This document shows, piece by piece, positions 8,443-63,837 of a stretch of DNA of 64,000 nucleotides. Under the pieces are notes generated by a model. The model was given only the letters and a program-made list of their open reading frames with translations, did no database searches and was not told where the DNA came from. A program made the position numbers and the translations under genes. Source of the DNA: an uncultured Gammaproteobacteria bacterium (GTDB lineage: Bacteria > Pseudomonadota > Gammaproteobacteria > UBA9214); contig CAVYZN010000016.1 of assembly GCA_963773065.1 (NCBI GenBank), positions 80,904 through 144,903 on the forward strand. The letters run 5' to 3'. Every line of letters starts with the position of its first letter. The stretch's first letter is position 1.

Positions 8443-8838
8443 GGGCATGAGGGAAATGCGCGGGGCCGGTGACCGCCACGCGGGTTCGAACGGGAACGCG
8501 ATACCACCTCATGGCATCGAAGGAAAGCCGGCTTCATTCGGCCCATGCCATACCCGCGCAAGCGGGACAACCCCTCAGTAGCTTTGAGCAGCCGCAGATA
8601 GGCTCGCACCGCGAATACTCAGAGTAGTTCGCGCACATCCCGCGCAAGATCAGTATTGTTTCGTCGCACCGGCGGGTCATAGCTGGAAATTCCACGCCAA
8701 TGGGCTAATCTGACAGTTGTCTCTCGTGCGGTGACCACGGCCATACCCATGGTGCGAACGGCAACCGTGAACAGGCTCGATTGGCGGGAGACAGTCCGGG
8801 AATTACCTGCTACTGACTAACGTTCATGGAGAAGACTT

Positions 8839-9108
8839 ATGATGATGACACGCAAGAAAATGACGGGCCTGCTGCTGGCTACAACCGCCGCCGCGCTGTT
8901 TAGCACCGCGAACATCACGGCAGCCGCAGAGGAAACCGCGAAAAGCGCGGAGGTGAAGTGCATGGGCATCAATTCCTGCAAGGGTACTTCCGAGTGCGCG
9001 AGCGCAACCAATTCCTGCAAGGGACATAATAGCTGCAAGGGCCAGGGTTGGGTGCACGCGAGCAAGGAGGACTGCACCGCCAAGGGCGGCAGCGTAATCG
9101 AAAAGTAA
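8839..9108 (+). CDS. bufA: Bufferin (BufA2-type) Cys-rich RiPP precursor with signal peptide
   Basis: Sec signal followed by [28 protein letters not shown]...C; lies directly upstream of DUF692. Confidence 0.85.
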
Positions 9109-9119
9109 TACCGCTACAA

Positions 9120-9153
9120 ATGCCAGGGCGCCGTCCGGCTCCCTGGCGTTTTC
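9120..9153 (+). terminator. Stem-loop after bufA (terminator or mRNA stabiliser)
   Basis: GCCAGGG...CCCTGGC stem followed by TTTT. Confidence 0.55.
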
Positions 9154-9296
9154 AACCAACGGTGTACCAACGACATAATCGGGCCGGTCGCACCGGAGCG
9201 CAGGCGCGGCGGAGCGGATCAGCGTTGCCGCTGCCTGCCGGCCGGCGCTACCATGTCCATCAGTACCCCGCACCCGCGCGGCGTACCATCAGGAAC

Positions 9297-10172
9297 ATGA
9301 TGGCGAAGTCAGAGCAAGGCCAAACCCGATTCCCGGATCTCGGCTTCGGGCTGGGTTTGCGCACGCAGCACTATCAGGAAATCCTGGACAGCGCTCCGCC
9401 CGTGGACTGGTTCGAGGCGCTGACGGAGAACTATCTCGTCCCCGGCGGCAAACCGCTCCATTATCTGGAGCAGGTCCGCGCCCGTTATCCGCTCGTTCTG
9501 CACGGGGTATCCCTGTCCATCGGCAGTTCCGATCCCCTCAATTGGGACTATCTGCGGCAGCTCAAGGCGCTGGCGGCCCGCATCGAGCCGATCTGGATCT
9601 CCGATCATTTGTGTTGGACGGGGCTTAACGGGCGCAACCTGCATGATCTCCTGCCCTTGCCCTACACGGAGGAGGCCGTGCTCCACGTGAGCGATCGCAT
9701 CCGGGCGGTGCAGGATTTCCTCGGCCGCCGCCTGCTGATCGAGAACGTATCGAGTTACCTCACCTATACCGATTCCTGCATGAGCGAGTGGGAGTTCCTG
9801 AGCGCGGTCGCCGGGCGCGCCGACTGCCTGATACTGCTCGACATCAACAACATCTACGTCAGCAGTTTCAACCATGAATTCGATCCGCTGGAGTACCTGC
9901 GGGGAGTACCCGTGGAGCGGGTACAGCAGTTCCACATCGCCGGGCATCGCAATCACGGCGACTATATCGTCGATACGCACGACGAACCGGTGATCGATCC
10001 GGTGTGGCGACTGTACGCCGACGCCTGCCGGCGCTTCGGACCGGTGTCCACCATGATCGAACGGGATGACAACATCCCCCCGCTCGCGCAATTGCTGGAG
10101 GAGCTCGATCGGGCGCGCCGCATCGCGGCCGGCATGGCCGTGCAGGCTCCGGAACGGGCAGGCGCCACATGA
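9297..10172 (+). CDS. bufB: DUF692 multinuclear non-heme iron oxidative enzyme (bufferin maturase)
   Basis: [72 protein letters not shown]. Confidence 0.93.
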
Positions 10173-10957
10173 GCAGCGGCAGTCTGCGCGAGCTGCAGGA
10201 ACAGTTCCAGTCCCATCTGCTGCATGGCGATCCCCGCGTGCAGGATCGCATCATCGGCACACCCCGGGTGGACGCGCACACGCGGCTCGCGATCTATGGC
10301 GATGCCTATCGCCTGCGATTGCTGGAGGCATTGAGGACTGACTTTCCCGCGCTGCATACGCTCGCGGGTGACGCGGAATTCGAACGCATCGGGCGCGCGT
10401 ACATCGACGCCCATCCCTCCGGGCACTTCTCGATCCGTTATTTCGGCCGCCGGCTCGGCGAGTTCTTGCGGCGGGACGAGCGCTGCCGGCGGATCCCGGT
10501 GTTTGCGGAGATGGCCGATTTCGAGTGGGCCTTGGGTTTGTCCTTCGATGCCCCCGACAGCGGGGTGATCGGCGTGGAGGACGTCGCCGCGATTCCAGCC
10601 GCGGCGTGGGCCGGGATGCGCATCGGCCTGCATCCCTCGCTGCAGCGGCTGGATCTGATCTGGAACGTGCCCGGACTCTGGAATGCGATTGATGAGGAGC
10701 AGCCGCCACAGGCGCCGGTCGCCGCCGACTGCCCGCTTGCCTGGATCATCTGGCGCCGGGAATTGCGCACGCTTTTCCGTTCCCTGCCGGTGGATGAAGC
10801 CTGGGCGATCGATTTCCTGGGGCAAGGACACGGCTTCGCGGAGATGTGCGAAGGGTTGTGCGAGTGGGTCGACGCGGCAGTGGCGGGAGCGCAGGCGGCG
10901 CTGTTCATGCGCCGCTGGGTGCAGGACGGACTCATCGCCCGCATCGATCTGGATTAA
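10169..10957 (+). CDS. bufC: DUF2063 RiPP-recognition partner (BufC/HvfC)
   Basis: [37 protein letters not shown]; ATGA overlap with bufB. Confidence 0.88.
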
Positions 10958-11005
10958 CCCGGATTATTAACCGCCAAGCCAGGATAACAGGGTACCGCTG
11001 TTGCC

Positions 11006-11623
11006 ATGTGGACGTGGTCGCTCAACTGGGGAGAAGTCTCGCCGCACATCGTGGTGGGAACCTGTCCGATGGCGCCGGAGGATGTCGGGCGCATCCAGGC
11101 GGGGGCGGGGGTATCCGCCGTCCTGTCCCTGCAGCATGACGACTGTCTGGCGTACTGGGGCATCGACTATGACGCCATGCACAACCAGGGATCGCGGCTC
11201 GGTCTCACCATGAGACGGTGCCCGCTCCGTGATTTCGACATCCCGAACCAGCGTGAGCGGCTGCCGCATGCCGTTGCGGCGCTGACCCGCCTGCGCTCGG
11301 AGGGACACCGCATCTACGTGCATTGCACCGCGGGTTTGGGTCGGGCGCCACTGACGGTATTGGCTTACCTCACCTGGGTGGAGGGTCAGCCGCCCGAGTG
11401 CGCGATACGCACGATTCATAACGCGCGGCCAGGCGCGGTGCCCGCCTGGGAGGCTTATCATGGGTGCCGCGCAGACCTCGTCGCGAGATACCGTTCGATG
11501 ATCGAGCGGCGGGCCTATGAACTGCATGAAAAAGGCGGCCCAAGAACCGCGCTCGATAACTGGGTCGATGCCGAAACCGGGGTCATCCGATCCGCGCTCA
11601 TGGAATTATCCCTGCTCGGATAA
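11006..11623 (+). CDS. Dual-specificity phosphatase of glucan-phosphatase (LSF2/SEX4/laforin) type with C-terminal DUF2934-like domain
   Basis: P-loop VHCTAGLGRA, D-loop RDFD, LSLQ....AYWGID; C-terminal IERRAYEL.E.GG..ALDNWVDAE. Confidence 0.85.
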   Translation: MWTWSLNWGEVSPHIVVGTCPMAPEDVGRIQAGAGVSAVLSLQHDDCLAYWGIDYDAMHNQGSRLGLTMRRCPLRDFDIPNQRERLPHAVAALTRLRSEGHRIYVHCTAGLGRAPLTVLAYLTWVEGQPPECAIRTIHNARPGAVPAWEAYHGCRADLVARYRSMIERRAYELHEKGGPRTALDNWVDAETGVIRSALMELSLLG

Positions 11624-11634
11624 CAGGCTAAAGC

Positions 11635-13239
11635 TCATTGAAACAGGGATTTCAATTTGTCCAGGGTCCGCTTTGAGACATCTGAAACTGCGTTGGTGCT
11701 CTCGAGTTCCAACAGGCGTTTGTTGTCCGGATCAACCGCCAGTCCCCGATCTCGATAGACTTGCGCCTTGCCGTAATGGAACTGGTCGAGCTCCCGTTGC
11801 GCCAGGTCGGCGTAGCGATCGGCGATCTGCGCCACGCCCGTTAACGCCTCCTCGTTATCGGGATCCTCTGCCAGGATCCTCTGGTAATAGTAATACGCGT
11901 TGTTCATTTCCGGTGTGGTGAGACGGTAGTCATCCAGCGCCTGCCTGGCCAGCAACAAGTCATTCTCACGTTGCAGTGTCAGGTCATCGCTCAGGCGCAG
12001 CACAACCTTTTGTGTTGTTGCCTTACCAGCCGGCAAACTCACGGTTTGCTCTTCCTCCGTCATCATCAACGGTTCTGAGATGAACAATTTTAAGGTGACA
12101 GTCAACAATAGCAACATCACCGCGCCGGTTAGCGCCCAGCGGATGCGGACGTGGTCAGCAAGGATTTCCTGCAACTTCCGGAATGCGACTCGCGACCGGT
12201 GACCGAGCTGGTAAACAGTATCCGCACCGGCTCTGTCGTGATCTATCGGCAATCGTTCCCTGCGTTGTCCTACTTCCACGGTAACTGCTCCCTGCGTTAC
12301 CCTACCTCCTACATCCCTGTAGTCGTGCATTTTTGCAGTCATACGAGCGGCGATCCTGGCGGCGATGACTTTTATCCGCGCCCATGGCCTGGAATTGCGC
12401 AGGTCCCGGACAGCACCGGCTACTGCCGCTGCAGCGACGCCCCGCGGCCGGTGCTGCCGAAGCTCCCGGATGATCCCGACCATTTCCCCGGCGGTGGCGT
12501 AGCGGTCGTCAGGCGCTTTCGCGACCATCCGTTCGATCAACTCCTGATAACGGCTCAGCTCCGCCGGCAAAGCGGGACAAGGCCTGGTCAGGTGGGCCAT
12601 GATGGTTTCGATCGGAGAGTCGCCCTGAAATGGCTTAACGCCCGTCAGCATCTCATAGAGAATGATGCCGAGCCCGTAGATGTCGGCGCGCCCGTCCAAT
12701 GGTTTGCATTCGGCCTGTTCCGGGCTGAGGTAATACGGGCTGCCCAGCGCGGTGCTGTCCAGCGTCAGCCGGATGTCATTCTCCAGGTGCTTGGCGATCC
12801 CGAAATCGGTGAGTACCGGGGTCCCGTCCTTGCGAAACAGGATGTTCGCCGGCTTGATGTCGCGGTGAATGATGTCTCTGCGGTGCAGGAAATCCAGGCA
12901 GCCGCCGATGATCTCCGCCAGCTCGAGCGCCGCCTCGATGTTCATGCCCTTGCTGATCCGCTTCTCCAGGTCGCCATCCTCGAGGTATTCCATGGATATG
13001 TAGTGCCGCTCGCCGACGACGCCGATATCGTGGATGGTGATGATGTTGCGGTGATTGAGCGAGGCGATGATCCGGCCCTCGTTGCGGAACCGGGTGGACT
13101 GCAGGGGGTTATCGATATTCTTCAGCAGTTTGAGGGCGACCTGCCGCTCCAGGGATTCCTGTATGGCCAGGTGCACGGATGCCATGCCGCCATCGGCGAT
13201 GGGTCGTATGATTTTGTAGCCGGGTATCTGCAGATCCAT
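11635..13239 (-). CDS. Hanks-type Ser/Thr protein kinase with TM and TPR-like C-terminus
   Basis: GGMASV, VALK, HRDIKPANIL, DFG, GSPYYLSPEQ, DIYGLG. Confidence 0.92.
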   Translation of the reverse strand: MDLQIPGYKIIRPIADGGMASVHLAIQESLERQVALKLLKNIDNPLQSTRFRNEGRIIASLNHRNIITIHDIGVVGERHYISMEYLEDGDLEKRISKGMNIEAALELAEIIGGCLDFLHRRDIIHRDIKPANILFRKDGTPVLTDFGIAKHLENDIRLTLDSTALGSPYYLSPEQAECKPLDGRADIYGLGIILYEMLTGVKPFQGDSPIETIMAHLTRPCPALPAELSRYQELIERMVAKAPDDRYATAGEMVGIIRELRQHRPRGVAAAAVAGAVRDLRNSRPWARIKVIAARIAARMTAKMHDYRDVGGRVTQGAVTVEVGQRRERLPIDHDRAGADTVYQLGHRSRVAFRKLQEILADHVRIRWALTGAVMLLLLTVTLKLFISEPLMMTEEEQTVSLPAGKATTQKVVLRLSDDLTLQRENDLLLARQALDDYRLTTPEMNNAYYYYQRILAEDPDNEEALTGVAQIADRYADLAQRELDQFHYGKAQVYRDRGLAVDPDNKRLLELESTNAVSDVSKRTLDKLKSLFQ

Positions 13240-13446
13240 GGTCTAGCGTTTAGTGAAGGCCGGTTAGAGAGCGGGCACTGCCCCGGGTATCACGTCCAAG
13301 GAGATTGGTCTACCACGGCGATGTTCATTGAACCCAGCCTGGAACAAGGCGTTAGTCACCGCTATCGACCGTACTATCGAATTCCTGAACGATCATGCCG
13401 TGGCCATGCTAAGGCCGTCGTTAGTGGATCCACTTTGCGAAGGTAC

Positions 13447-13547
13447 GGTCGGGGATGGGCTTGCCGGGACCGTGTGCCGCCAGGACGGCGGCACCCGAGC
13501 CTACAGGGACGTATTCACGGCGTGTCCCGGCAAGTCCATCCCGGACC
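13447..13547. repeat. ~100 bp palindromic REP/MITE-like element, copy A
   Basis: GGTC.GGGATGGGCTTGCCGG...CCGGCAAGTCCATCCCGGACC; near reverse complement of 18128-18228. Confidence 0.85.
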
Positions 13548-21377: not shown

Positions 21378-21757
21378 TGCCTGCACCGGGTGTGCTGCAC
21401 CACTCCGACCGGGGAAGCCAGTACGCCAGCGGAGCGTTCCAGGACAAGCTCGCGGACTACGGCATGACGTGCTCGATTAGCCGCAGGGGGAACTGCTGGG
21501 ATAACACGCCGACGGAAAGCTGGTTCAACAGTTTCAAGAATGAGCGGACGCATGGCACGTATTACGCCACGCGTGCCGAAGCAACGGCCGATGCCTTCGA
21601 TTACATCGAGGTGTTCTACAACCGCAAACACCGTCATTCGACCCGCGGTTACAAGGTACCTATCCAGTAGCTTGACGACTGGATCAGTGTTCAACACAGG
21701 AATGAGCTGGTTGCATGAAGCAACCCGGTTGGAAGACGAAAAACCGGAGGAACCTCA
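21378..21757 (+). mobile_element. IS3-family remnant (integrase core C-terminus plus right end)
   Basis: HHSDRGSQYAS, SRRGNCWDN...ESWF.SFK.E, DYIEVFYNR.HRHS; ends in ...CCGGAGGAACCTCA. Confidence 0.88.
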
Positions 21758-21783
21758 CTACAACGAAAAACAGGAGAACATGT

Positions 21784-24387
21784 ATGAACCGTATCTTCTT
21801 CAGTCTGGCTCGTAACACCCTGCTCGGTGCAGCGCTGACGACACTTTGCGCCTGTGGAGGCGGTGGCGGTGGTGGCAGCGGTGACACGGGGGGCGTGAAT
21901 CCCCCGCCCTCCACGGGCATCACCCTGAGCGGCACGATTGGTGTGCCCGCCGGTATCTCGGTCGACAACGATGTCAACGATCCACACGCGCTCTATGCCG
22001 AGAATGACAGCCCCGCCTCGGCGCAGTCCATCGCCAATCCGACGATGGTCGGCGGTTATGCGAACAGCCCGGGGGCCGGAAATTCAGGTCGCTCGCAGGT
22101 CGCGGGGGATGTGAGTGACTTCTATCAGGTCACCCTGAGCGCCAACCAGACGCTGCTGCTGTCGTTGGCCGACCCCGATGCCGGCGATTTGGATCTCTAC
22201 CTCTGGGACAGCAACGGCACCACCATCCTCGATGCCTCGCTCAACACCGGACCGTTGGAGTCGCTCACCGTCGCCGCGGCCGGCACCTATTTCGTGGAGG
22301 TGCAGGCCAAGCGTGGCGCGACCAACTACACCCTGGGCGTCGGTCAGAACGTACCGGCGGCCATCGGCGATCTGGTGTTCGGTGCCGAGTTTGTGCCGGG
22401 CGAGGTGGTCGCGCGCTTCCGGGATGACCGCGCCTCCTTCAGCACGGCCTCGAGCGGATTGGCCCGCGTTCAAGCCCTGGGCCTGCAGCTCGAGGCCGGT
22501 GAGCCCGAGCGCGAAATGTTGCTCCAGGTGGGTGAGGAAGCGGACTTGCGCCGCGCCGCCTCGGTAACCGCTGATGCAGCCGATGCCGATACGGCGCGTC
22601 GGGCGGCCATCGCCGATTCTGAGCTGCAGCGCAAGTGGGACACGTTGCAGGCGATCAAGGCCTTGCGTCTGCGTCCCGATGTGGCCCTTGCCGAGCCGAA
22701 CTTCATCCGTAGGGCCGATGCCACTCCCAACGATGAGTTCTATCGGTATCAATGGCACTATCCGATGATCAACGTCTCCGGCGCCTGGGATCTGGTTGCT
22801 GGCCGTGGCGATGTCGTCGTGGCGGTGATCGACACCGGCGTGCTGCTGGGTCATCCGGATCTGCAGGGCCAATTGCTGCCGGGCTTTGACTTTATCCGCG
22901 ATCCGAACAACGCCCAGGATGGCGATGGCATCGATAGCAATCCCGATGATCCGGGAGATGATCGCTACAATGGCAACAGCTCCTTTCACGGTACCCATGT
23001 CTCCGGCACGATTGCCGCGGCCACCAACAACAACGTGGGTGTGGCCGGCATCGCTCCCATGGCCAATATCATGCCACTGCGCGTGCTCGGCGCCAAAGGC
23101 GTCGGCTACTCCTATGACATCCTCCAGGCGGTGCGCTATGCGGCCGGTCTCAGCAATGATTCCGGCACCCTGCCGGCGCGCCGCGCCGACATCATCAATC
23201 TGAGTCTGAGCGGCGCCAGCGCCTCCCAGGCCGAGCAGGATGTGTACACGCAGGCGCGCGCCCGGGGTGTGATCATCGCGGCTGCCGCCGGCAACAGCTC
23301 TAGCTCGGTCCCACAATACCCTGCCTCCTATGCCGGCGTCGTCGCGGTCAGCGCTGTCAATATCGGTCGCACCCTGGCCCACTACTCCAATTTCGGCGCC
23401 AGCGTCGATGTGGCCGCTCCTGGGGGTGATTCCGGTGACTAAAATGGCGACGGTGCGCAGGATATGGTCATGAGCACCGGTGGCAGCGATGCGTACGGAA
23501 CCATCGCCTATACGTATCGACCCATGGCCGGCACGTCCATGGCCATGCCGCACGTCGTCGGCGTGGCCGCCCTCATGAAGGCCGTCAACCCGGCACTGAC
23601 GCCGGATCAGTTCGATGCCCTGCTCGCACGCGGTGATCTGACCATCGATCTTGGCACCCCCGGCCGTGACGATTACTACGGCTACGGGCTGATCGATGCC
23701 CGCAAGGCGGTGCAAGCCGCCATGACCGGTACCCAGCCGCCGGTCAGCCCGCACCTGGTGGTTGCACCCGCCTCGCTCAACTTCGGCGACGACACGACCG
23801 TCGCCACCGTGGCACTGAGCAACGACGGGGGTGGCTCCCTGTCCGTGAATCCTCCGACCGACGACGCGACCTGGCTCAGCGTAAGCCCCGCGCAGGCCGG
23901 CAACCCGATGGGCGCCTATGTGGTAACTGTGAACCGCAGCGGCCTGGGCGCTGGCACGTACTCGGCCACGATCACCTTCAGTTCTTCGGCCAATACGGTG
24001 AGTGTGCCCGTGATCATGCAGGTCACGAATCATCCGCTGTTCGGTGACGCCGGCTACCACTACGTGCTGCTCATCGACTCGGCGAGCGGGGAAACGGTCG
24101 ATCAGTTCGAGGCCCAGGCCAGCAATGGCGTCTACGCCTACCGCTTCGTCGATGTCGCACCGGGACGCTATGAGATCTTCGCCGGCACCGACGCCAACAA
24201 CGACACCTACATCTGTGATCCGGGCGAGGCATGCGGTGGCTATACCACCCTCGACCAGCCCAAGGACCTGGATGTCAGTGACTCACTCAGTGGACTGGAC
24301 TTCAGCACCGGCTTCGAGCTGAGCGTTCCGGCGGCGGCTGACACCGGGGCGCCGCAGCAGTCCCACGCGCTGCGGCGCCATCACTAA
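21784..24387 (+). CDS. Lipoprotein S8 subtilase with PPC-like, BACON-like and C-terminal beta domains; in-frame TAA at 23440-23442
   Basis: Lipobox LCAC-GGGG; catalytic VAVIDTG, HGTHVSG, AAAGN and GTSMAMPHV; both halves lie in the same frame. Confidence 0.88.
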
Positions 24388-52654: not shown

Positions 52655-53656
52655 TCAGGTCGCGATCAAGAGACTCTCCGCGAAGGGCCACTCCTGATCG
52701 AGCCACTGCGCCTCGCAGGAAAAACCCGCGGCCGCGGCGAGCCGCGGCACTTCCTCGGGCGCGTACTTGTGGCAGCTCTCCGTCCAGATCGTCTCGTCCT
52801 CGCGCAGCGTGAATGCGAGCCCTGCCGCGCGGAGGGTGACGGTCTGCGTGCAGGTCGAGCGCAGGTGCATCTCGATGCTGCGCGCGTCGGGGTTGTAGCG
52901 GGCGAGATGGCGGAACTGCGGCAGCATAAAGTCGGCGTCGAACTCGCGGTTGATGCGCGCGAGCAGGTTGAGGTTGAAGGCGGCCGTGATGCCGAGGGGA
53001 TCGTCATAGGCGGCGAGCAGTTGCGCGACCGGCTTTTCGAGGTCGGTGCCGAGCAGCAGCGAGTCCCCCGGACGCAGGATGCGCCGGACATCGCGCAGGA
53101 ACTGCACCGCGGCCGGGCGCTCGAAGTTGCCGATGGTGCTGCCGAGAAACAGCACCAGCAGGTGCTCCTCGTCACGGCGGCGCGCGGCCACCTGCGCGAG
53201 GCCCTCCAGGTATTCGCCCTCGTAGCCCACGATGCTGATCGCCTCGATATCGCCGAGCTCGCGCCGGCACATGGCGAGCGCGCTGCGCGAGATCTCGATG
53301 GGGCAATAACACGAGGGCCGGCGGCGGGCGAGCGCCTCGAGCAGCCAGCGGGTTTTCTTCCCGCTGCCGGTCCCCAGTTCCGCCACGATCACCGGCAGCG
53401 GCAGCCGTGAAACGATTTCCGGCGCGTGGCGCCGCAGCAGCCGCACGTCGGCGCGGGTCAAGCCGTATTCGGGCAACACGCTGATGACCTCGAACAGCGC
53501 CGAGCCGACCTCGTCATAGAGGCATTTCGATGGCAGCTCCTTTTGTCCGGGCCGGGTCAGCCCGGCGCAGACCTCGGCGGCGAAGCCGTTTAATGAATCG
53601 GCGGAAAGTGTCTGGCGCAGCATACGATGGCCTCCTGTTGAAACGGGTTTATTCAC
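52655..53656 (-). CDS. egtD: L-histidine N-alpha-methyltransferase
   Basis: K.LPSK.LYD..GS.LFE.I..LPEY, ELG.GSG.KT, FLGSTIGNF, AYDD..GITAAFNLN.L.RINRE, IEMHL. Confidence 0.92.
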   Translation of the reverse strand: MNKPVSTGGHRMLRQTLSADSLNGFAAEVCAGLTRPGQKELPSKCLYDEVGSALFEVISVLPEYGLTRADVRLLRRHAPEIVSRLPLPVIVAELGTGSGKKTRWLLEALARRRPSCYCPIEISRSALAMCRRELGDIEAISIVGYEGEYLEGLAQVAARRRDEEHLLVLFLGSTIGNFERPAAVQFLRDVRRILRPGDSLLLGTDLEKPVAQLLAAYDDPLGITAAFNLNLLARINREFDADFMLPQFRHLARYNPDARSIEMHLRSTCTQTVTLRAAGLAFTLREDETIWTESCHKYAPEEVPRLAAAAGFSCEAQWLDQEWPFAESLLIAT

Positions 53657-54984
53657 TTACGCAGCGGAACTTCGCGTAGACGTAGGGGTAGTGCGGCTGG
53701 AACCAGTTGCGGAACGAGCGGCGCAGCATACAGGTCGCCGTGCGGGCCGAGCCGCCCTTCAACACGTAATGCCGGCCGTCGAAGAAATCGGCCGAGTAGC
53801 CGGGATAGCATTCGAACGGGCGAAACCCCGGGAAGGGGGCGAACCGGCTCGCGGTCCACTCCCAGCCGTTGCCCAGCAGCCCGGCGACGCCGAAGGCGCT
53901 GCGGTTTGCGGGGAAGGCGCCGACCGGGACGGGATCCCAGTCGCGGAAGTCGAAATTCCCGAGACCATGGCGGGGCGGCGCGTCGCCCCATGGGTAGGCT
54001 CTTTCGCTGCCGTCCGGCGCGCCATACGCTGCGCGCTGCCATTGTGCCTCGGTGGGCAGGGCCTTGCCGGCCCAGCGGGCATAGGCGCTCGCCTCCGCGT
54101 GGCTGACGTAGACGGGCCATTGCAGCGGCAGCGGTACGAGCTCGAACATGCCGCGGTAATACCAGCGGTTATTGAGCCGGGTCCAGAACGCGGGGTGGCC
54201 GATGTGCTGTTCGGTGCGCCACCGCCAGTCGCTCTCCGACCACAAGGCGCGTTCCTCGTACCCGCCCGCCGCCATGAACTCGAGGTACTCGCCGTTGCTG
54301 ATCGGATAGCGGTCGATGGCAAAGGCGGGCACCTCGACCGGATGCCCGTCATACTCGTTGTCCCAGCCGAAGCCGCGACCGTCATCACGAGACAGCCCGA
54401 GGGTGACGGCGCCGGCGGGAATCTCGACCACGCTGGGCACGACCTCCGGGGCGATGACCCGCGGCGTACACGGGCGCCGGAGCTTTTGCTCCGGCGGCAA
54501 CCGATGGAGCAGATACGCCAGGGTTTCCGCGTGCATCAGGCGGTGCTCGATGGCGACGTTGAGCAGCAGCTCCGGCGGCTCCTCCGCGGGCGTGGCCGCG
54601 GATAGCGAGCGCGCGTGCCAGTGCCGCATCGAGCGCCGCGCGCACGCGCTGGCTGTAGCGGCGGATCGCCGCGGCGGAGGGCCAGTCCGCGGGCGTGTCG
54701 GTCGGGAGCCCGCCCCCCACGGGATCGATGCCGAAGGCGAACAGGCGGTCGAATTCCGGCGCGAAGGCCTTCAGCCCGGGAAGCCGCGCGCGGAACAGGT
54801 TCCCGTCGAAGGCCTCGAGGTGGCCGAGGTAGAAGACGAGGCGGTGCCGCTCGGCAACCGGCCGCTCGTAGAGCGCATCGGGCCTGACCAGAGCGAACAG
54901 CCGGTCGGTACGGATGCGGGCCACCGCCAGGCGTGTCAGCAATTCATGCCGGGTGACGGCGGCGTTTTTTTTCATGGCAAGCAT
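53649..54984 (-). CDS. egtB: Sulfoxide synthase of the EgtB/OvoA family (frameshifted near 54600-54625)
   Basis: RH.LVFYLGHL, EHRLMHAET iron ligands, FGWDNE, FGE-like LPTEAQW, GNGWEWT, YPGYSADFFDG.HYV.KGGS, RRSFRNWFQ. Confidence 0.88.
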
Positions 54985-58872: not shown

Positions 58873-61602
58873 TTATGCCACCTGACCGGCGGCAGGCGCC
58901 GCCGCGGCCGGCGCCGCCTGCGATCGCTCGCGCCAGAAGCGCGGGATGTCGCGGCGGTAGCGACGCGCGACCAGGTTGGCGATGAGCCCCGTCCAGCCGG
59001 TCTGGTGCGACGCCCCCAGCCCCTGGCCGGTGTCGCCGTGGAAGTATTCGTAGAAGAGATGCAGGTCGCGCCAGTAGGGATCGTGCTGGAACGGACTGTC
59101 CGGCGGGTGGGCACGCACCCGCCCGGTCTCATCGCGCCGGTAGATGTCCACCAGACGCTCGGCGATGAGGTTCGCGATCTCCTTGAGGTTCAGCCTGCGA
59201 CCGCCCAGGCAGGGCACGGGCACGGTGAACTCGTCGCCGAGGAAGCGGTAATACTTCTCCAGCGCCTGCACCAGCAGGAAATTGGTCGGCATCCAGATCG
59301 GGCCGCGCCAGTTGGAATTGCCGCCGAACAGCCCCGAGTTCGACTCCCCCGGAACGTACTCGATCATCGCCTCACCCACGCCTGGCAGGTGGCCGAGTTC
59401 GCGGTGTGTGGCGTGCAGCTTGCTCACGCTGCGCACGCCGTAGGACGAGAGGAACTCGTCCTCGTTCAGCAGCCGCTGCAGGACGCGCGGCAGCATGGTG
59501 TGATCGGTGAGCGACAGCAGGTGTTCGCCGCGGGCGTTCCCCCACTCCGGGCAGGCGCAGATGTAGTTGCCCTGGAACAGCCCGCCCTTGTGCTGGGCGA
59601 GCAGCGCGGCGAAGCGCGGCGCCTTGGAGAGCAGCCGCTGGTCCACCACTTCGCAGGCAAACAGCGGGATCAGCCCCACCCAGGAATAGACGTCGATGCG
59701 GTGATGGCTGCCGTCGGGGGTGACGACCAGGTCCTTGAAGAAACCCGCCTCTGGGTCCCACAGCGAGATGCCGCCGTCGTTATGGCCGGCAACCGTGTTG
59801 GCGATAGAGAGGAACTGATCGAAGATCTGGATGGCGATGTCCTCATATTCCGGGTCGTAGTGTGTCAGCTCCAGTGCGATCAGCGTCATGTTGAGGGCGA
59901 ACATCGCCATCCAGCCGGTGGCGTCCGCCTGCTTGAGGCTGTAGCCCGGGGGCAGCGGGTGCGAGCGGTCGAACACGGAGATGTTGTCCAGTCCGAGGAA
60001 GCCACCCTCGAACACGTTGTGGCCGTCGGCGTCCTTGCGGTTGATCCACCAGGCGTAGTTGAGCAGCAGCTTGTTGAACACACGCAGCAGGAAATCGCGG
60101 TCGCCCCGGCCGCGTTGCACGCGCTCGCTGCGGTAGCACTTGAGCGCGCCCATGGCGTGCACCGGCGGGTTGACGTCGCCGAAGGCCCATTCGTAGGCCG
60201 GGATCTGGCCGTTGGGATGCAGGTAGGTATCCTTCAGCATCAGCTCGATCTGCTCCTTGGCGAAATCCACGTCGACCAGCGCCAGCGCCGCGCAATGAAA
60301 CGCCAGATCCCAGGCCGCGAACCACGGGTACTCCCACTTGTCCGGCATGGAGATCACGTCGCCGGCGCGAAAGTGCTTCCAGTAGCGGTTGCGCCCGAAA
60401 CGGCGCGGGGACGGGGCGGGGTAGCGGTCGCCCGCGAGCCAGCGCGACACCTCGTAGTGGAAGAACTGCTTGCTCCAGATCATGCCCGCGAGCGCCTGGC
60501 GCATGATGCGGTGATCCTCGGGGCTCGCATCGGGCAGGAATTCATCGTAGAACACATCCGCCTCCGAGCGGCGCTGCGAGAAGGTCACCTGGCTGCGTGC
60601 GAAGGGTTCCTCGAGCGGCTGGGCGGAGAGCACCAGGTTGACCACCGTCTTCTGCCCGGGCGCGACGTTGCAGCGGAGCCAGGCCGCGAACTTCGTGCCC
60701 TGCGAGGCCGGGTTGACGGCCTCGTGTTGCCCATCGATGAGGAAGCGGTGGAAGGCATCCTTGACCCAGGGAGTGGCGTTTGGGCAGCCCCACAGGCGCT
60801 CGGCATTGCTTTCGTTTTCGGTGTAGAGACCGGTGCCCGGCTGGCGCCCGTAGAGGTAATAGCTGCCGAGCGTCGGGTGGCTCGCCTGCACCGCCCAGGC
60901 GGCGCCCTGCGGCGGCTCAATCGCCTTCAGTAGCGGCTTCTCGCCCACGGCCTCTCCCCAGGACCAGGTGTTGCGGAACCAGAGCGTGGGCAGCAGGTGC
61001 AGCGTCGCCTCCTCGGGTCCGCTGTTGTAGGCGAGGATGTTGGCGTGGATCTCCTCCGGCGAACGCTTGGCGTAGTGCACCTCGATGTCCCAGTAGCGGT
61101 TCTCGTGAAACACCCCGGTGTCGAGCAGGCTGTAGGGCGGGTCGAGCCGGCCGCGCCGCCGGTTCTCCTCGACCAGCCGGGCGTAGGGGTATTCCGCCTG
61201 CGGATACTTGTACAAATAGCGCAGGTAGCTGTGGCTCGGGGTGGCGTCGAGGTAGAAGTAATACTCCTTGACGTCCTCGCCGTGGTTGCCCTGGTTGCCG
61301 GTCAGGCCGAAGGCGCGCTCCTTCAATATCGGATCGCGGCCGTTCCACAGCGCGAGCGCGAGACACAGCCGCTGCTGGTCGTCGCAGACGCCGCCCAGGC
61401 CGTCCTCGTTCCAGCGGTAGGCGCGCGCACGCGCCTGGTCGTGGTCGAAATATTCCCAGGCGGTGCCGTGGTCGCTGTAGTCCTCGCGCACCGTGCCCCA
61501 GGCGCGCTCCGCCAAATAGGGCCCCCACAGGCGCCAGTTCTCGCGGCCCTGGTGCTGCTGCTCCAGGCGCTGCCGCTCCGCGTTCAGTTCAGGTGTTGCC
61601 AT
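58873..61602 (-). CDS. GH63-like (MGH1) glucosidase
   Basis: [77 protein letters not shown]. Confidence 0.9.
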
Positions 61603-61676
61603 GTCGTATGCCTCCCGAAGTCTGTCTGCCGTCATCGCTGTTGAAAGTAGTTAGTGTTCATCCATAAACACCGTTT

Positions 61677-61770: not shown

Positions 61771-63837
61771 TTATGGATGGACACCAGTTAGGTCCATCGT
61801 TTCCACGGCGGTACTGGCGCGGCGCGCCTGCTCGATGCGCCACCAGGCCTCCAGCACGCAGGCGACCGACCAGGCCTGCGCCGGGGCGCCGCGCGGGGTG
61901 TGCGGCGGATCGCCGTCGAAGATCTCGCTCACCGTGCCCAGGCCCGCATCGCGCAGATGATCCTGAACCGGTTCGAGCAACCGCTGCGCCGCGGTCGCAT
62001 CGCCGTTCACGCGATAGTGAGCGAGCGCGTAATGGCCGAGCAGCCAGCTCCACAGCGGTCCCTGGTGATAGCCGCTGTCGCGCTCCCATACGCCGCCCTG
62101 GTAGCGCGGCCGGTAGTCGGGGTGCGCGGGGGTGAGCGAGTGCAGCCCGTAGGAGCCAAGCAGCTCGCGCGCACACTCGGCCACCACGGCGGCTTGCGCC
62201 TCGGCGGGCAGGGGACTGTGCGGCAGGCTGACGGCGAAGATCTGATTGGGACGCACGCTGGGATCGTCGCCCGCGGGGCCGTCGAGCACGTCGAACAGGC
62301 CGCCCTCCGCCCGGCGGTAGCGCGCGAAGCCCGCGCCTGCTTGCGCGGCCAGCGTCTCATAGCGTTCGGTGGGCCGCCCGAGGTCCCGGGCGAAGCCGGC
62401 CATGACGCACAGGGCGTTGTACCACAGGGCGTTGATCTCGACCGGCTTGCCGATGCGCGGCGTCACCACCCAGTCGCCGAGCTTCGCGTCCATCCAGGTG
62501 AGCTGCACCCCCGGTACGCCGGCGCGCAGCAGGCCGTCGGCGGGGTCCACGCCGATGCCGTAGCGCGTGCCGCGGACATGCCAGTCGATGATCGATTCCA
62601 GCACCGGGAACACCCGCGAGAGCGCCGCTCGGTCGCGCGCGGCCTCGTGGTAGGCGCGCCACGCCTCCACGTACCAGAGCGCGGCGTCCACGGTGTTGTA
62701 GTCGGGACGGTCGCCGGCGCCGGGAAATACGTTCGGCAGCATGCCCTGGTCCACGAAGCGGGCGAAGGTCTCGAGGATGCGCCGCGCGCTGTCATAGCGG
62801 CCGGTGGCGAGTGTCAGACCGGGCAGGGCGATCATGGTGTCGCGCCCCCAGTCGCCGAACCACGGATAACCCGCGATCACCGATTCCCCGTCCGGCGCCT
62901 CGGGCAGCGGCCGAGCGAATATGAAGCTGTCGGCGGCCAGCACCAGTTGTTGCAACCAGGCGGGCGCCGCGCGCAGGCCGGGAGTGTGCAGGCGGGCGCG
63001 CGCTAGTACGCCGCGGTCGTGGGCCTGGAAGCGCCGCAGCGCCTCCTCGAGATAGGGCGAGGCATCCTCGCGCAGGCTGGCCGTGATCCCGCTCCAGAGG
63101 CCCGGCGTAAGTTCCAGCAGCGCCTCGCCCACGCACAGGTGGTTGTCGGTCGGATCGAGGCCGCGTTCGCGTTCCACCGGCAGGTCGAGGTTCTCGATCC
63201 AGGTGTGGTCGCTGCGCAGTTCACCCGCCGTGGCGCGGAGAGTCAGCCGGAACCCATTGGGATGGATGACGGTGAGTCGTTGGCCCTCCTGTGCGATGAC
63301 CGGGTTGAAATCCCAGGGACGGGCGCTGCCGTGGTGGTCGCGTGCGTTGACCAGGAACCGCACCCGCAGCCGCGGCGCCCCTACTCCTGAAACTGGGCTT
63401 GCCAGGCGATAGGCGACATAGGTCGTGTGCGCCCCCGGCTCCATCCAGATGCGCTGCTCGAGGCGCAGCGCGCCGGCAGCGTAGTGCCACACCGGCATGC
63501 GGCCCTCGAGATGAAACGACTCGATATGCACGTGTCCTTGCGGCGCGACCGCACCGCCCGACCAGTGGTTGGTGCCCAACTCCCATTCTCGGCTGCCTGC
63601 AAGCAGCACCGCCTCGGCCTTGGCGAACACCAGGTGGCGGCCAAGCGGCGGATTGACCGGGGCGATCAGCAGGCCGTGGTAGCGGCGCGTCAGGCTGCCC
63701 GTGATGGTGCCGGCGGCATAGCCGCCGAGCCCGTTGGCGAGCCACCATTCGCGCCGTTCGGCCTGGGCGAGGTCGCCGCAGATCTCGCGTCCGAAGCGGA
63801 TGAACTCAGGCAAGGGCGTGTTCACGATCGGCGGCAT
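61771..63837 (-). CDS. Amylo-alpha-1,6-glucosidase (GH133, glycogen debranching-type)
   Basis: REW...NGLGGYA.GT...TRRYHGLL, IAGYPWFGDWGRDTMI.L.GL, TWMDA, PR.GKPVEINALWYNAL, RPNQ.FA.SL, YHQG..W, QAWSVA. Confidence 0.92.
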   Translation of the reverse strand: MPPIVNTPLPEFIRFGREICGDLAQAERREWWLANGLGGYAAGTITGSLTRRYHGLLIAPVNPPLGRHLVFAKAEAVLLAGSREWELGTNHWSGGAVAPQGHVHIESFHLEGRMPVWHYAAGALRLEQRIWMEPGAHTTYVAYRLASPVSGVGAPRLRVRFLVNARDHHGSARPWDFNPVIAQEGQRLTVIHPNGFRLTLRATAGELRSDHTWIENLDLPVERERGLDPTDNHLCVGEALLELTPGLWSGITASLREDASPYLEEALRRFQAHDRGVLARARLHTPGLRAAPAWLQQLVLAADSFIFARPLPEAPDGESVIAGYPWFGDWGRDTMIALPGLTLATGRYDSARRILETFARFVDQGMLPNVFPGAGDRPDYNTVDAALWYVEAWRAYHEAARDRAALSRVFPVLESIIDWHVRGTRYGIGVDPADGLLRAGVPGVQLTWMDAKLGDWVVTPRIGKPVEINALWYNALCVMAGFARDLGRPTERYETLAAQAGAGFARYRRAEGGLFDVLDGPAGDDPSVRPNQIFAVSLPHSPLPAEAQAAVVAECARELLGSYGLHSLTPAHPDYRPRYQGGVWERDSGYHQGPLWSWLLGHYALAHYRVNGDATAAQRLLEPVQDHLRDAGLGTVSEIFDGDPPHTPRGAPAQAWSVACVLEAWWRIEQARRASTAVETMDLTGVHP

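Follow-up and report, generated by a model that had tools for sequence, protein, structure and literature searches.

A bacterial member of the SEX4/LSF glucan-phosphatase superfamily without a carbohydrate-binding module, and its possible action on glycogen

The DNA analyzed here, called the window below, is a stretch of 64,000 nucleotides from a contig of an uncultured gammaproteobacterium (CAVYZN010000016.1, positions 80,904 to 144,903). On its forward strand, a single open reading frame (ORF) runs from an ATG at 11006 to a TAA at 11621-11623 and encodes a 205-residue dual-specificity phosphatase (DSP), whose membership of the SEX4/LSF glucan-phosphatase superfamily is solid. Most aligned homologues open with the same MWTWSLNW, which speaks for this start codon. 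The gene and the parts of its product on which the argument relies are listed below, with the basis of each in brackets; 4kyq is the LSF2 entry of the PDB, and A1 is an alignment of 75 sequences.

11006..11623, stop included, forward strand: phosphatase gene, encoding a 205-residue cytoplasmic protein of dual-specificity fold, SEX4/LSF superfamily (ORF, DSPc match, PDB matches and AlphaFold2 model)
11009..11029, forward strand: N-terminal aromatic motif W2-T-W4-S-L-N-W8 (conservation)
11129..11167, forward strand: variable-loop motif LQHDDCLAYWGID, in which Y50-W51 correspond to LSF2 Y135-W136 (residue-by-residue 4kyq alignment)
11228..11239, forward strand: D-loop R-D-F-D, with the general acid D76 (LSF2 D161) and F77 (LSF2 F162) (alignment)
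11321..11350, forward strand: P-loop HCTAGLGRAP, with the nucleophile C107 (LSF2 C193) and R113 (4kyq alignment and A1)
11492..11620, forward strand: C-terminal two-helix tail, residues 163-205, with helices at 163-175 and 182-204 (DUF2934-like sequence and model)

The Pfam family DSPc matches the protein with an E-value of 4.9e-10 (39.8 bits, against a cut-off of 33.5), and an NCBIfam profile search returned nothing useful. The first-pass annotation of this DNA had suggested an enzyme lacking a carbohydrate-binding module (CBM), and none was found in the Pfam search of the protein. No obvious N-terminal signal sequence is apparent in the translation, as read by eye. The solved relatives were ranked by a phmmer search of the protein against all PDB chain sequences. 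LSF2 (4kyq) is the top match (E 1e-26, residues 6-158 of the protein), followed by SEX4 (1.1e-22) and LSF1 (1.6e-17). Seven orders of magnitude below LSF1 come ShufPTP (3.7e-10) and laforin (1e-8), then archaeal protein tyrosine phosphatases and DUSP23; PTPMT1 (6.3e-4) and Cdc14 (0.029) are far weaker matches. The resemblance to LSF2 is far beyond chance.

Five sequence strings had been singled out in the first-pass annotation, and all of them can be located in the translation: LNWGEVSPHIVVGTCPMAPEDV (residues 6-27), LSLQHDDCLAYWGID (40-54), PLRDFDIPNQRERLPHAV (73-90), IYVHCTAGLGRAPLTVLAYLTW (103-124), and IERRAYELHEKGGPRTALDNWVDAE (165-189). The LSF2 and SEX4 motifs that had been named alongside them, LNLQQDKDIEYWGID, KDFD/RDFD, and HC(S/T)AG(L/M)GRAP, are confirmed in the phmmer alignments, and the protein itself has a P-loop of the LSF2 type, DFD in its D-loop, and Tyr-Trp in its variable loop. 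Its P-loop reads HCTAGLGRAP, that of LSF2 HCSAGLGRAP, and that of the SEX4 crystal-construct chains (H)STAGMGRAP, with serine at the nucleophile position. A P-loop of the form C-(hydrophilic)-A-G-(aliphatic)-G-R, followed by A/S-P, is reportedly the signature given in the papers of Gentry and Vander Kooi. The variable loop of LSF2, LQQDKDIEYWGID, matches LQHDDCLAYWGID, with EYWGID in the former facing AYWGID in the latter.

Residues C107, G110, R113, and D76 are invariant in A1, and W8, F77, and H106 are nearly so (at least 90% for W8 and F77). Among the protein and its 120 best matches (the close family, n = 121), the P-loop pattern C.AG[LMVI]GR and the D-loop pattern DF[DNH] each occur in 117, YW in 108, and the N-terminal pattern W.W.[LF][NED]W in 110; the L-N-W of the latter aligns with M-N-Y of LSF2. 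This conservation bears on whether the protein could be a catalytically dead scaffold, binding a glucan or a partner as LSF1 does. LSF1 is the third-best solved match, and a recent review presents it as a member without catalytic activity, whose role is the recruitment of beta-amylases (PMC13666283). Nevertheless, with C107, R113, D76, and H106 invariant or nearly so, a canonical P-loop in 117/121 sequences, and neither the PDZ domain nor the CBM48 of LSF1 found by Pfam, such a scaffold is very improbable. As for substrate binding, the glucan channel of LSF2 is formed, according to the available text of one study, by Y83, Y85, Y135, W136, and F162, with C193 as the nucleophile (PMC5779698). 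Three of these five channel residues align identically, Y135, W136, and F162 corresponding to Y50, W51, and F77.

The AlphaFold2 model of the protein, built on A1, has a mean predicted local distance difference test score (pLDDT) of 97.4 and a predicted template modeling score of 0.93. In a Foldseek search against the PDB, ranks 1-8 are held exclusively by LSF2, SEX4, and laforin chains, and rank 9 by PTPMT1. Structures from Foldseek's list were then scored with VIA-align, the output of which consists of residue ranges. LSF2 reaches a Z-score of 25.3 (root-mean-square deviation (rmsd) 2.2 Å over 183 residues, model 1-204 on LSF2 80-282), and SEX4 one of 24.3 (model 2-205 on SEX4 90-378), in an alignment that skips CBM48. 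Laforin follows at 22.2 (rmsd 1.8 Å, 159 residues), with only its DSP domain aligned. The highest-scoring other phosphatase is Tk-PTP (19.1), ahead of PTPMT1 (17.7), a baculovirus RNA 5'-phosphatase (17.3), and Cdc14 (16.3).

The C-terminal tail is modeled with block-mean pLDDT values of 89-99. The DUF2934 profile (PF11154) matches residues 165-190 of the protein with an E-value of only 0.058 (13.5 bits, under the cut-off of 22), so the DUF2934-like tail announced in the first-pass annotation stays below threshold in the protein itself; it holds at the level of the family, since 25 of the 75 members of A1 match at E <= 0.01, the best at 4.1e-8, and one relative, P0123, exceeds the cut-off with 25.7 bits. 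Papers that use the name DUF2934 deal with other subjects, judging by their titles and the openings of their abstracts. Because the VIA-align alignments reach the final residues of LSF2 and SEX4, the tail occupies the place of the C-terminal (CT) motif of the plant enzymes, and in the model it looks like the structural counterpart of that motif. The idea that it might act as a separate module, targeting the enzyme to a granule or a partner, is not borne out by this comparison, as the model packs the tail into one globule with the rest of the protein, overlaying the CT motif.

Phylogenetic placement relied on two quick trees (106 rows, and 119 rows with ten outgroups) and one careful tree of 68 rows. 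The latter was computed under LG+G4 with ultrafast bootstrap and Shimodaira-Hasegawa-like approximate likelihood-ratio supports, given here in that order, and was rooted on six generic gammaproteobacterial DSPs; its bootstrap was not fully settled. All three trees agree, and in the careful tree the ingroup is split from the outgroup at 100/100. This split, the PDB sequence ranking, and the fold ranking all bear out that the protein is not of the Cdc14 or PTPMT1 type. The ingroup has two divisions. Division I (97/82) contains the plant-type clades, labeled from architecture and source names: LSF1-like proteins of about 600 residues with CBM48, SEX4-like proteins combining a DSP domain with CBM48, and LSF2-like proteins of 260-350 residues without a CBM, the LSF2-like clade being supported at 100/97. 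Jointly, the plant-type clades form one clade (100/97), nested among seven short bacterial-type proteins, one of which comes from a gammaproteobacterial genome (G227). Division II (99/94) consists of 200-residue bacterial proteins and includes the protein studied here, which is therefore not an LSF2 orthologue. The original description as an LSF2-like enzyme is partly supported: it stands as far as the superfamily and the closest solved relative are concerned, and does not extend to orthology.

A second green-lineage clade nests within division II (96/89) and comprises chlorophytes, streptophyte algae, a moss, and lycophytes (P0153, P0187, P0163, P0297, P0354, and others), one of the proteins ending in a CP12 domain; no seed plants are among the members listed. 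Most of the short division I proteins are nameless metagenome proteins, so that an origin of both eukaryotic clades within bacteria can only be inferred.

The protein is a member of a large family of proteins of about 200 residues, found in sediment Gammaproteobacteria and in Desulfobacterales. A word-indexed search among proteins of 112-359 residues gave 600 matches at E <= 1e-3, the best 120 of which are 57-94% identical to it, nearly all about 200 residues long, and labeled, where at all, as 'hypothetical' or 'atypical dual specificity phosphatase'. An exhaustive search of 1.84 billion representatives gave 1854 matches at E <= 1e-3, of which 69 reach E <= 1e-30. In contigs from one genome per species, 24 loci carry relatives, all of them in bacterial records: uncultured Gammaproteobacteria, Chromatiales, Methylococcaceae, Candidatus Thiodiazotropha, several Desulfobacterales, and Thioalkalivibrio denitrificans ALJD, a cultured carrier whose homologue is 50% identical. 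Eukaryotic contamination or recently acquired foreign DNA is rejected on the basis of these 24 records, of the length of the bacterial contig (145 kb), and of the guanine plus cytosine (G+C) content of the gene (0.655), which matches that of its flanks. Within the same genus, two of four other genomes carry the phosphatase gene. A scan of 200 further genomes of the class returned 24 loci for DSPc, three of which belong to the superfamily (in G208, G113, and G227), the other readable ones being generic DSPs.

The protein may be a cytoplasmic and catalytically active glucan phosphatase, dependent on cysteine and devoid of a CBM, acting on glycogen, a reading to which we assign a probability of roughly 45%. 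In such an enzyme, C107 of HCTAGLGRAP would attack a phosphate monoester on an alpha-glucan, likeliest glycogen or a malto-oligosaccharide, while R113 would hold the phosphate and D76 would protonate the leaving sugar hydroxyl. Y50, W51, and F77 would line an aromatic channel that grips the chain, to which the conserved N-terminal W2, W4, and W8 may contribute, and the DUF2934-type two-helix tail would serve structurally as the counterpart of the CT motif of plants. Stripping phosphate esters from the storage glucan would allow phosphorylase, debranching, and branching enzymes to act on it. We infer which substrate is used, what the aromatic residues do, and that the host contains phosphorylated glycogen.

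Alpha-glucan metabolism in the host had been read by the first-pass annotation from two genes of the window. Both are present, although they lie 47-52 kb from the phosphatase gene and are unlinked to it:

58876-61635, reverse strand: GH63-like gene
61774-63837, reverse strand: GH133 debrancher with GDE_N and GDE_C

The host genome (90.9% complete) encodes a GlgA, two GlgB, two GlgC above the cut-off with two more slightly below it, two alpha-glucan phosphorylases of the DUF3417 type, and the GH133 debrancher, no glycogen gene being located near the phosphatase gene. The full glycogen toolkit is thus present in this genome. At 188902-194045 of another contig (C6), one of the two phosphorylase genes is directly preceded, on the same strand, by a canonical phosphoenolpyruvate (PEP) synthase gene, and the second (contig C5) adjoins glgC and glgB. 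The synthase, PpsA, was considered as a hidden glucan dikinase, a possibility ruled out by its complete architecture of PPDK_N, mobile, and PEP-binding domains. As for the genomes carrying relatives of the phosphatase, GlgB scores above the cut-off in seven of ten, and GT5 glucan synthase genes are found in all five Desulfobacterales tested; a GH57 branching enzyme, found in one of these five, is uninformative. The gammaproteobacterial carriers (G237-G240 and G243) often possess two to four full-length GlgB-type genes. The glycogen genes of the carriers remove one possible objection to a glycogen substrate and add little in its favor.

Several observations weigh against a glucan phosphatase. 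The protein sits outside the LSF1/SEX4/LSF2 clade, in the sister division, of which we know of no characterized member. The commonest P-loop of this division is CTAGINR (66 of 150 representatives), and YW is found in only 30 of the 150, several aligned members being devoid of it. The C-x-A-G-aliphatic-G-R loop alone is not diagnostic, because the generic bacterial DSPs of the outgroup read HCKAGLGRTG. Residues Y83 and Y85 of the LSF2 channel have no aligned counterpart: they lie upstream of the first aligned residue, and the protein begins five residues before LNW, where the conserved W2 and W4 might stand in for them. None of the four mappable residues of the LSF2 surface site SBS2, as it is listed in the available text of PMC5779698, is kept (R153, M155, R157, and W180 being replaced by T68, R70, C72, and R95), and the site SBS3 falls outside the sequence alignment of the two proteins. 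In favor of the reading, the same paper (PMC5779698) reports that OsttaDSP of Ostreococcus tauri, although devoid of a CBM and of these surface sites, is able to bind amylopectin and to remove phosphate from it, which makes it a precedent for deducing activity from the channel alone.

The genomic evidence contributes further objections. No glucan-water-dikinase-like gene was found in the host genome, where the sole PPDK_N (PF01326) hits are the three-domain PpsA and a PPDK; with the genome 90.9% complete, its absence is not proven. The glycogen genes of the carriers discriminate little, because GT5 matches 11-12 of 14 control genomes. The distribution of the phosphatase gene is patchy, with three of 61 related genomes carrying it, including that of the window, though glycogen genes are common; it was found neither in 32 genomes of the family from outside the genus nor in 24 genomes of other families. 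The surroundings of 22 homologous loci were also surveyed, taking no more than three ORFs per side, each 90 residues or longer, by crude longest-ORF picks, with Pfam at E <= 1e-6 and two partial matches (L024 and L025) set aside. Neighborhoods are not conserved, and none of the 110 neighbor ORFs belongs to an alpha-glucan family.

The same observations can be read as pointing to another non-protein phosphoester: a different phosphorylated glycan (exopolysaccharide, lipopolysaccharide core, or phospho-oligosaccharide), a lipid head group as for PTPMT1, a nucleotide, or an RNA end. In that case, the resemblance to LSF2 would be an ancestral inheritance and not a sign of the present substrate. 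The variation of the P-loop and of YW across a division with no characterized member suggests varied substrates, PTPMT1 directly follows the glucan phosphatases in the Foldseek ranking (rank 9; VIA-align Z 17.7), the RNA 5'-phosphatase reaches Z 17.3, and the gene combines a patchy distribution with no genomic tie to glycogen genes. However, the LSF2-type loop and YW are kept in 108-117 of the 121 close-family sequences, the sequence and fold scores of PTPMT1 and of the RNA phosphatase are far below those of LSF2 and SEX4, and no lipid-synthesis or polysaccharide-export gene recurs among the 110 neighbor ORFs. A substrate of this kind is somewhat unlikely.

The immediate surroundings of the phosphatase gene raise a third kind of substrate. 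Two neighboring features are needed here:

8839-9108, forward strand: small Cys-rich ORF whose Cys motifs recur and whose N-terminus is signal-like (no Pfam match)
11635-13239, reverse strand: Hanks-type Ser/Thr kinase with a Pkinase domain and a TPR-like C-terminal half, converging on the phosphatase gene, 11 bases away

Beyond the kinase gene lie AcrB, and then a membrane-fusion protein. A convergent kinase gene lies 11 bases away, Cx5R and Asp are intact in a DSP fold, and the rankings continue with protein phosphatases of archaea and humans (Tk-PTP at Z 19.1, SsoPTP, and DUSP23), so that the protein could act in signaling on phosphotyrosine or on phosphoserine and phosphothreonine, maybe opposing this very kinase. 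Nevertheless, as the two genes converge, they do not form one operon. The G+C content of the kinase gene is 0.545-0.61, vs 0.65-0.67 for the phosphatase gene and the other flanks, and at the syntenic locus L002, which alone shares the MbnB/DUF2063 and AcrB flanks, the kinase gene is missing and AcrB directly follows the phosphatase gene. For these two reasons, the kinase gene is probably a later insertion; no protein kinase was found among the 110 neighbor ORFs either. The E-values to protein DSPs are, moreover, at least 16 orders of magnitude weaker than that to LSF2. A protein phosphatase is, on this evidence, unlikely, and a glucan phosphatase is retained as the preferred reading.

Upstream, on the forward strand, the Cys-rich ORF opens an operon (8839-10957) of the type dedicated to ribosomally synthesized and post-translationally modified peptides (RiPP), continued by an MbnB/TglH/ChrH (DUF692) enzyme (E 6e-113) and a DUF2063 protein. 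We take it to resemble the 'bufferin' copper-binding peptide operons. The DUF2063 gene stops 48 bases upstream of the phosphatase start codon, on the same strand. A functional link between the phosphatase and the MbnB and DUF2063 genes was considered and rejected, as the arrangement is limited to close relatives (L002, 75% identity, and P0122, 86%) and is found at none of 21 other loci. P0122, a metagenome protein of 464 residues, joins a DUF2063 domain (residues 8-100) to a segment (residues 319-464) 86% identical to residues 56-205 of the phosphatase; either the fusion is genuine or, in a close relative, gene calling ran through two neighboring genes.

Metatranscriptome contigs from four runs (X16-X19), compared over 8800-13300, map to 8800-10494 and to parts of the kinase gene. 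They derive from relatives, because they are mostly 90-95% identical; none lies on 10612-12272, so they are uninformative on the expression of the phosphatase. The precursor region of the RiPP-type operon has a high word depth in these contigs, up to about 316 (X18). A promoter and terminator scan of 8500-13500 gave one promoter-like and two terminator-like sites, not above shuffled sequences, and is uninformative on operons. Recurrent neighbors are rare among the surveyed loci: Kup in two Desulfobacterales, a beta-lactamase-fold protein twice, and YkuD twice. The phosphatase gene behaves as a stand-alone accessory gene, and its context is neither for nor against a link to glycogen.

Further along the window, two consecutive ORFs at 21715-24387 (forward strand) encode partial subtilase S8 domains (profile positions 3-211 and 232-288) and, from their sequence, look like one peptidase gene broken by a frameshift or a stop. 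At 52658-54629 (reverse strand), a histidine-specific methyltransferase (Methyltransf_33) stands beside an FGE-sulfatase-type protein, a pairing that is presumably of the EgtD/EgtB type, for ergothioneine synthesis.

Glucan phosphatases had been called eukaryotic in the first-pass annotation, and the literature consulted says the same (PMC2714694, PMC13666283). Gentry and Pace, in 2009, sought fusions of a CBM with a DSP, and their conclusion was that bacteria and archaea have neither laforin nor SEX4 (PMC2714694); as this survey required a CBM fused to the phosphatase, it would miss an LSF2-like enzyme. A 2025 paper and a 2026 review treat bacteria as being without such enzymes, and bacterial glycogen phosphorylation as an open question (PMC13011383, PMC13666283). 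No description of a bacterial or prokaryotic glucan-phosphatase family was found in the full-text literature, most subscription journals and supplements lying outside this scope.

In mammals, part of the phosphate in glycogen is introduced by glycogen synthase, through a side reaction. If phosphate came from such a side reaction, a phosphatase could be useful without a dikinase. It is tentatively proposed that some bacteria keep a dedicated CBM-less glucan phosphatase, with phosphate esters added to glycogen by a non-dikinase route and having to be cleared from it, and that SEX4/LSF1/LSF2 and the second green clade each arose from a bacterial radiation of DSPs with a DUF2934-type tail, the CT motif being a remnant of this tail; we hold this combined scenario to be rather doubtful. 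A bacterial family within the superfamily provides a concrete and easily expressed candidate for finding out whether bacteria phosphorylate and dephosphorylate glycogen, points to Thioalkalivibrio denitrificans as a cultured carrier, and suggests where the plant enzymes, with their CT motif, may have come from. Were the substrate a different one, the family would still show what the ancestors of starch phosphatases looked like.

Among the known systems, LSF2 of the Arabidopsis chloroplast (4KYQ/4KYR) shares with the protein the lack of a CBM, the HC(S/T)AGLGRAP loop, the KDFD/RDFD loop, and a helical C-terminal element on the DSP domain. It differs in that the protein studied here is bacterial, has no transit peptide, and carries a longer, DUF2934-like tail. 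SEX4 (DSP4; 3NME/4PYH) and LSF1 (8J5D) have D-loops and P-loops of the same type, but have a CBM48 inserted after the DSP domain, ahead of the CT motif, LSF1 having an N-terminal extension as well; the bacterial protein has neither. Human laforin (4RKK/4R30) comes third among the glucan phosphatases by fold, and its substrate is glycogen, which is also what a bacterium would contain; its N-terminal CBM20 has no equivalent in the bacterial protein, and the sequence similarity is weak (1e-8).

OsttaDSP, which was left out of the trees, is of the LSF2 type by the description available in its paper, with an HCTAGMGR loop and 48.5% identity to LSF2 (PMC5779698). It keeps all five channel residues, including Y83 and Y85, for three aligned ones in the bacterial protein. 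The nearest eukaryotic relatives are the uncharacterized green-lineage DSPs nested within division II (Bryopsis GMH34854.1, Klebsormidium, Selaginella 'DSP4-like', and Ostreococcus 'dual specificity phosphatase'), whose names are 'hypothetical' or automatic. They resemble the bacterial protein in their 37-41% identity over residues 2-197, their W-x-W-T-L-N-W start, and their DUF2934-like tail, and differ from it by a CTAGINR P-loop, the lack of YW, and long N- and C-terminal extensions. In the bacterial protein, the DUF2934-like motif is fused to the phosphatase domain and, in the model, packed on it.

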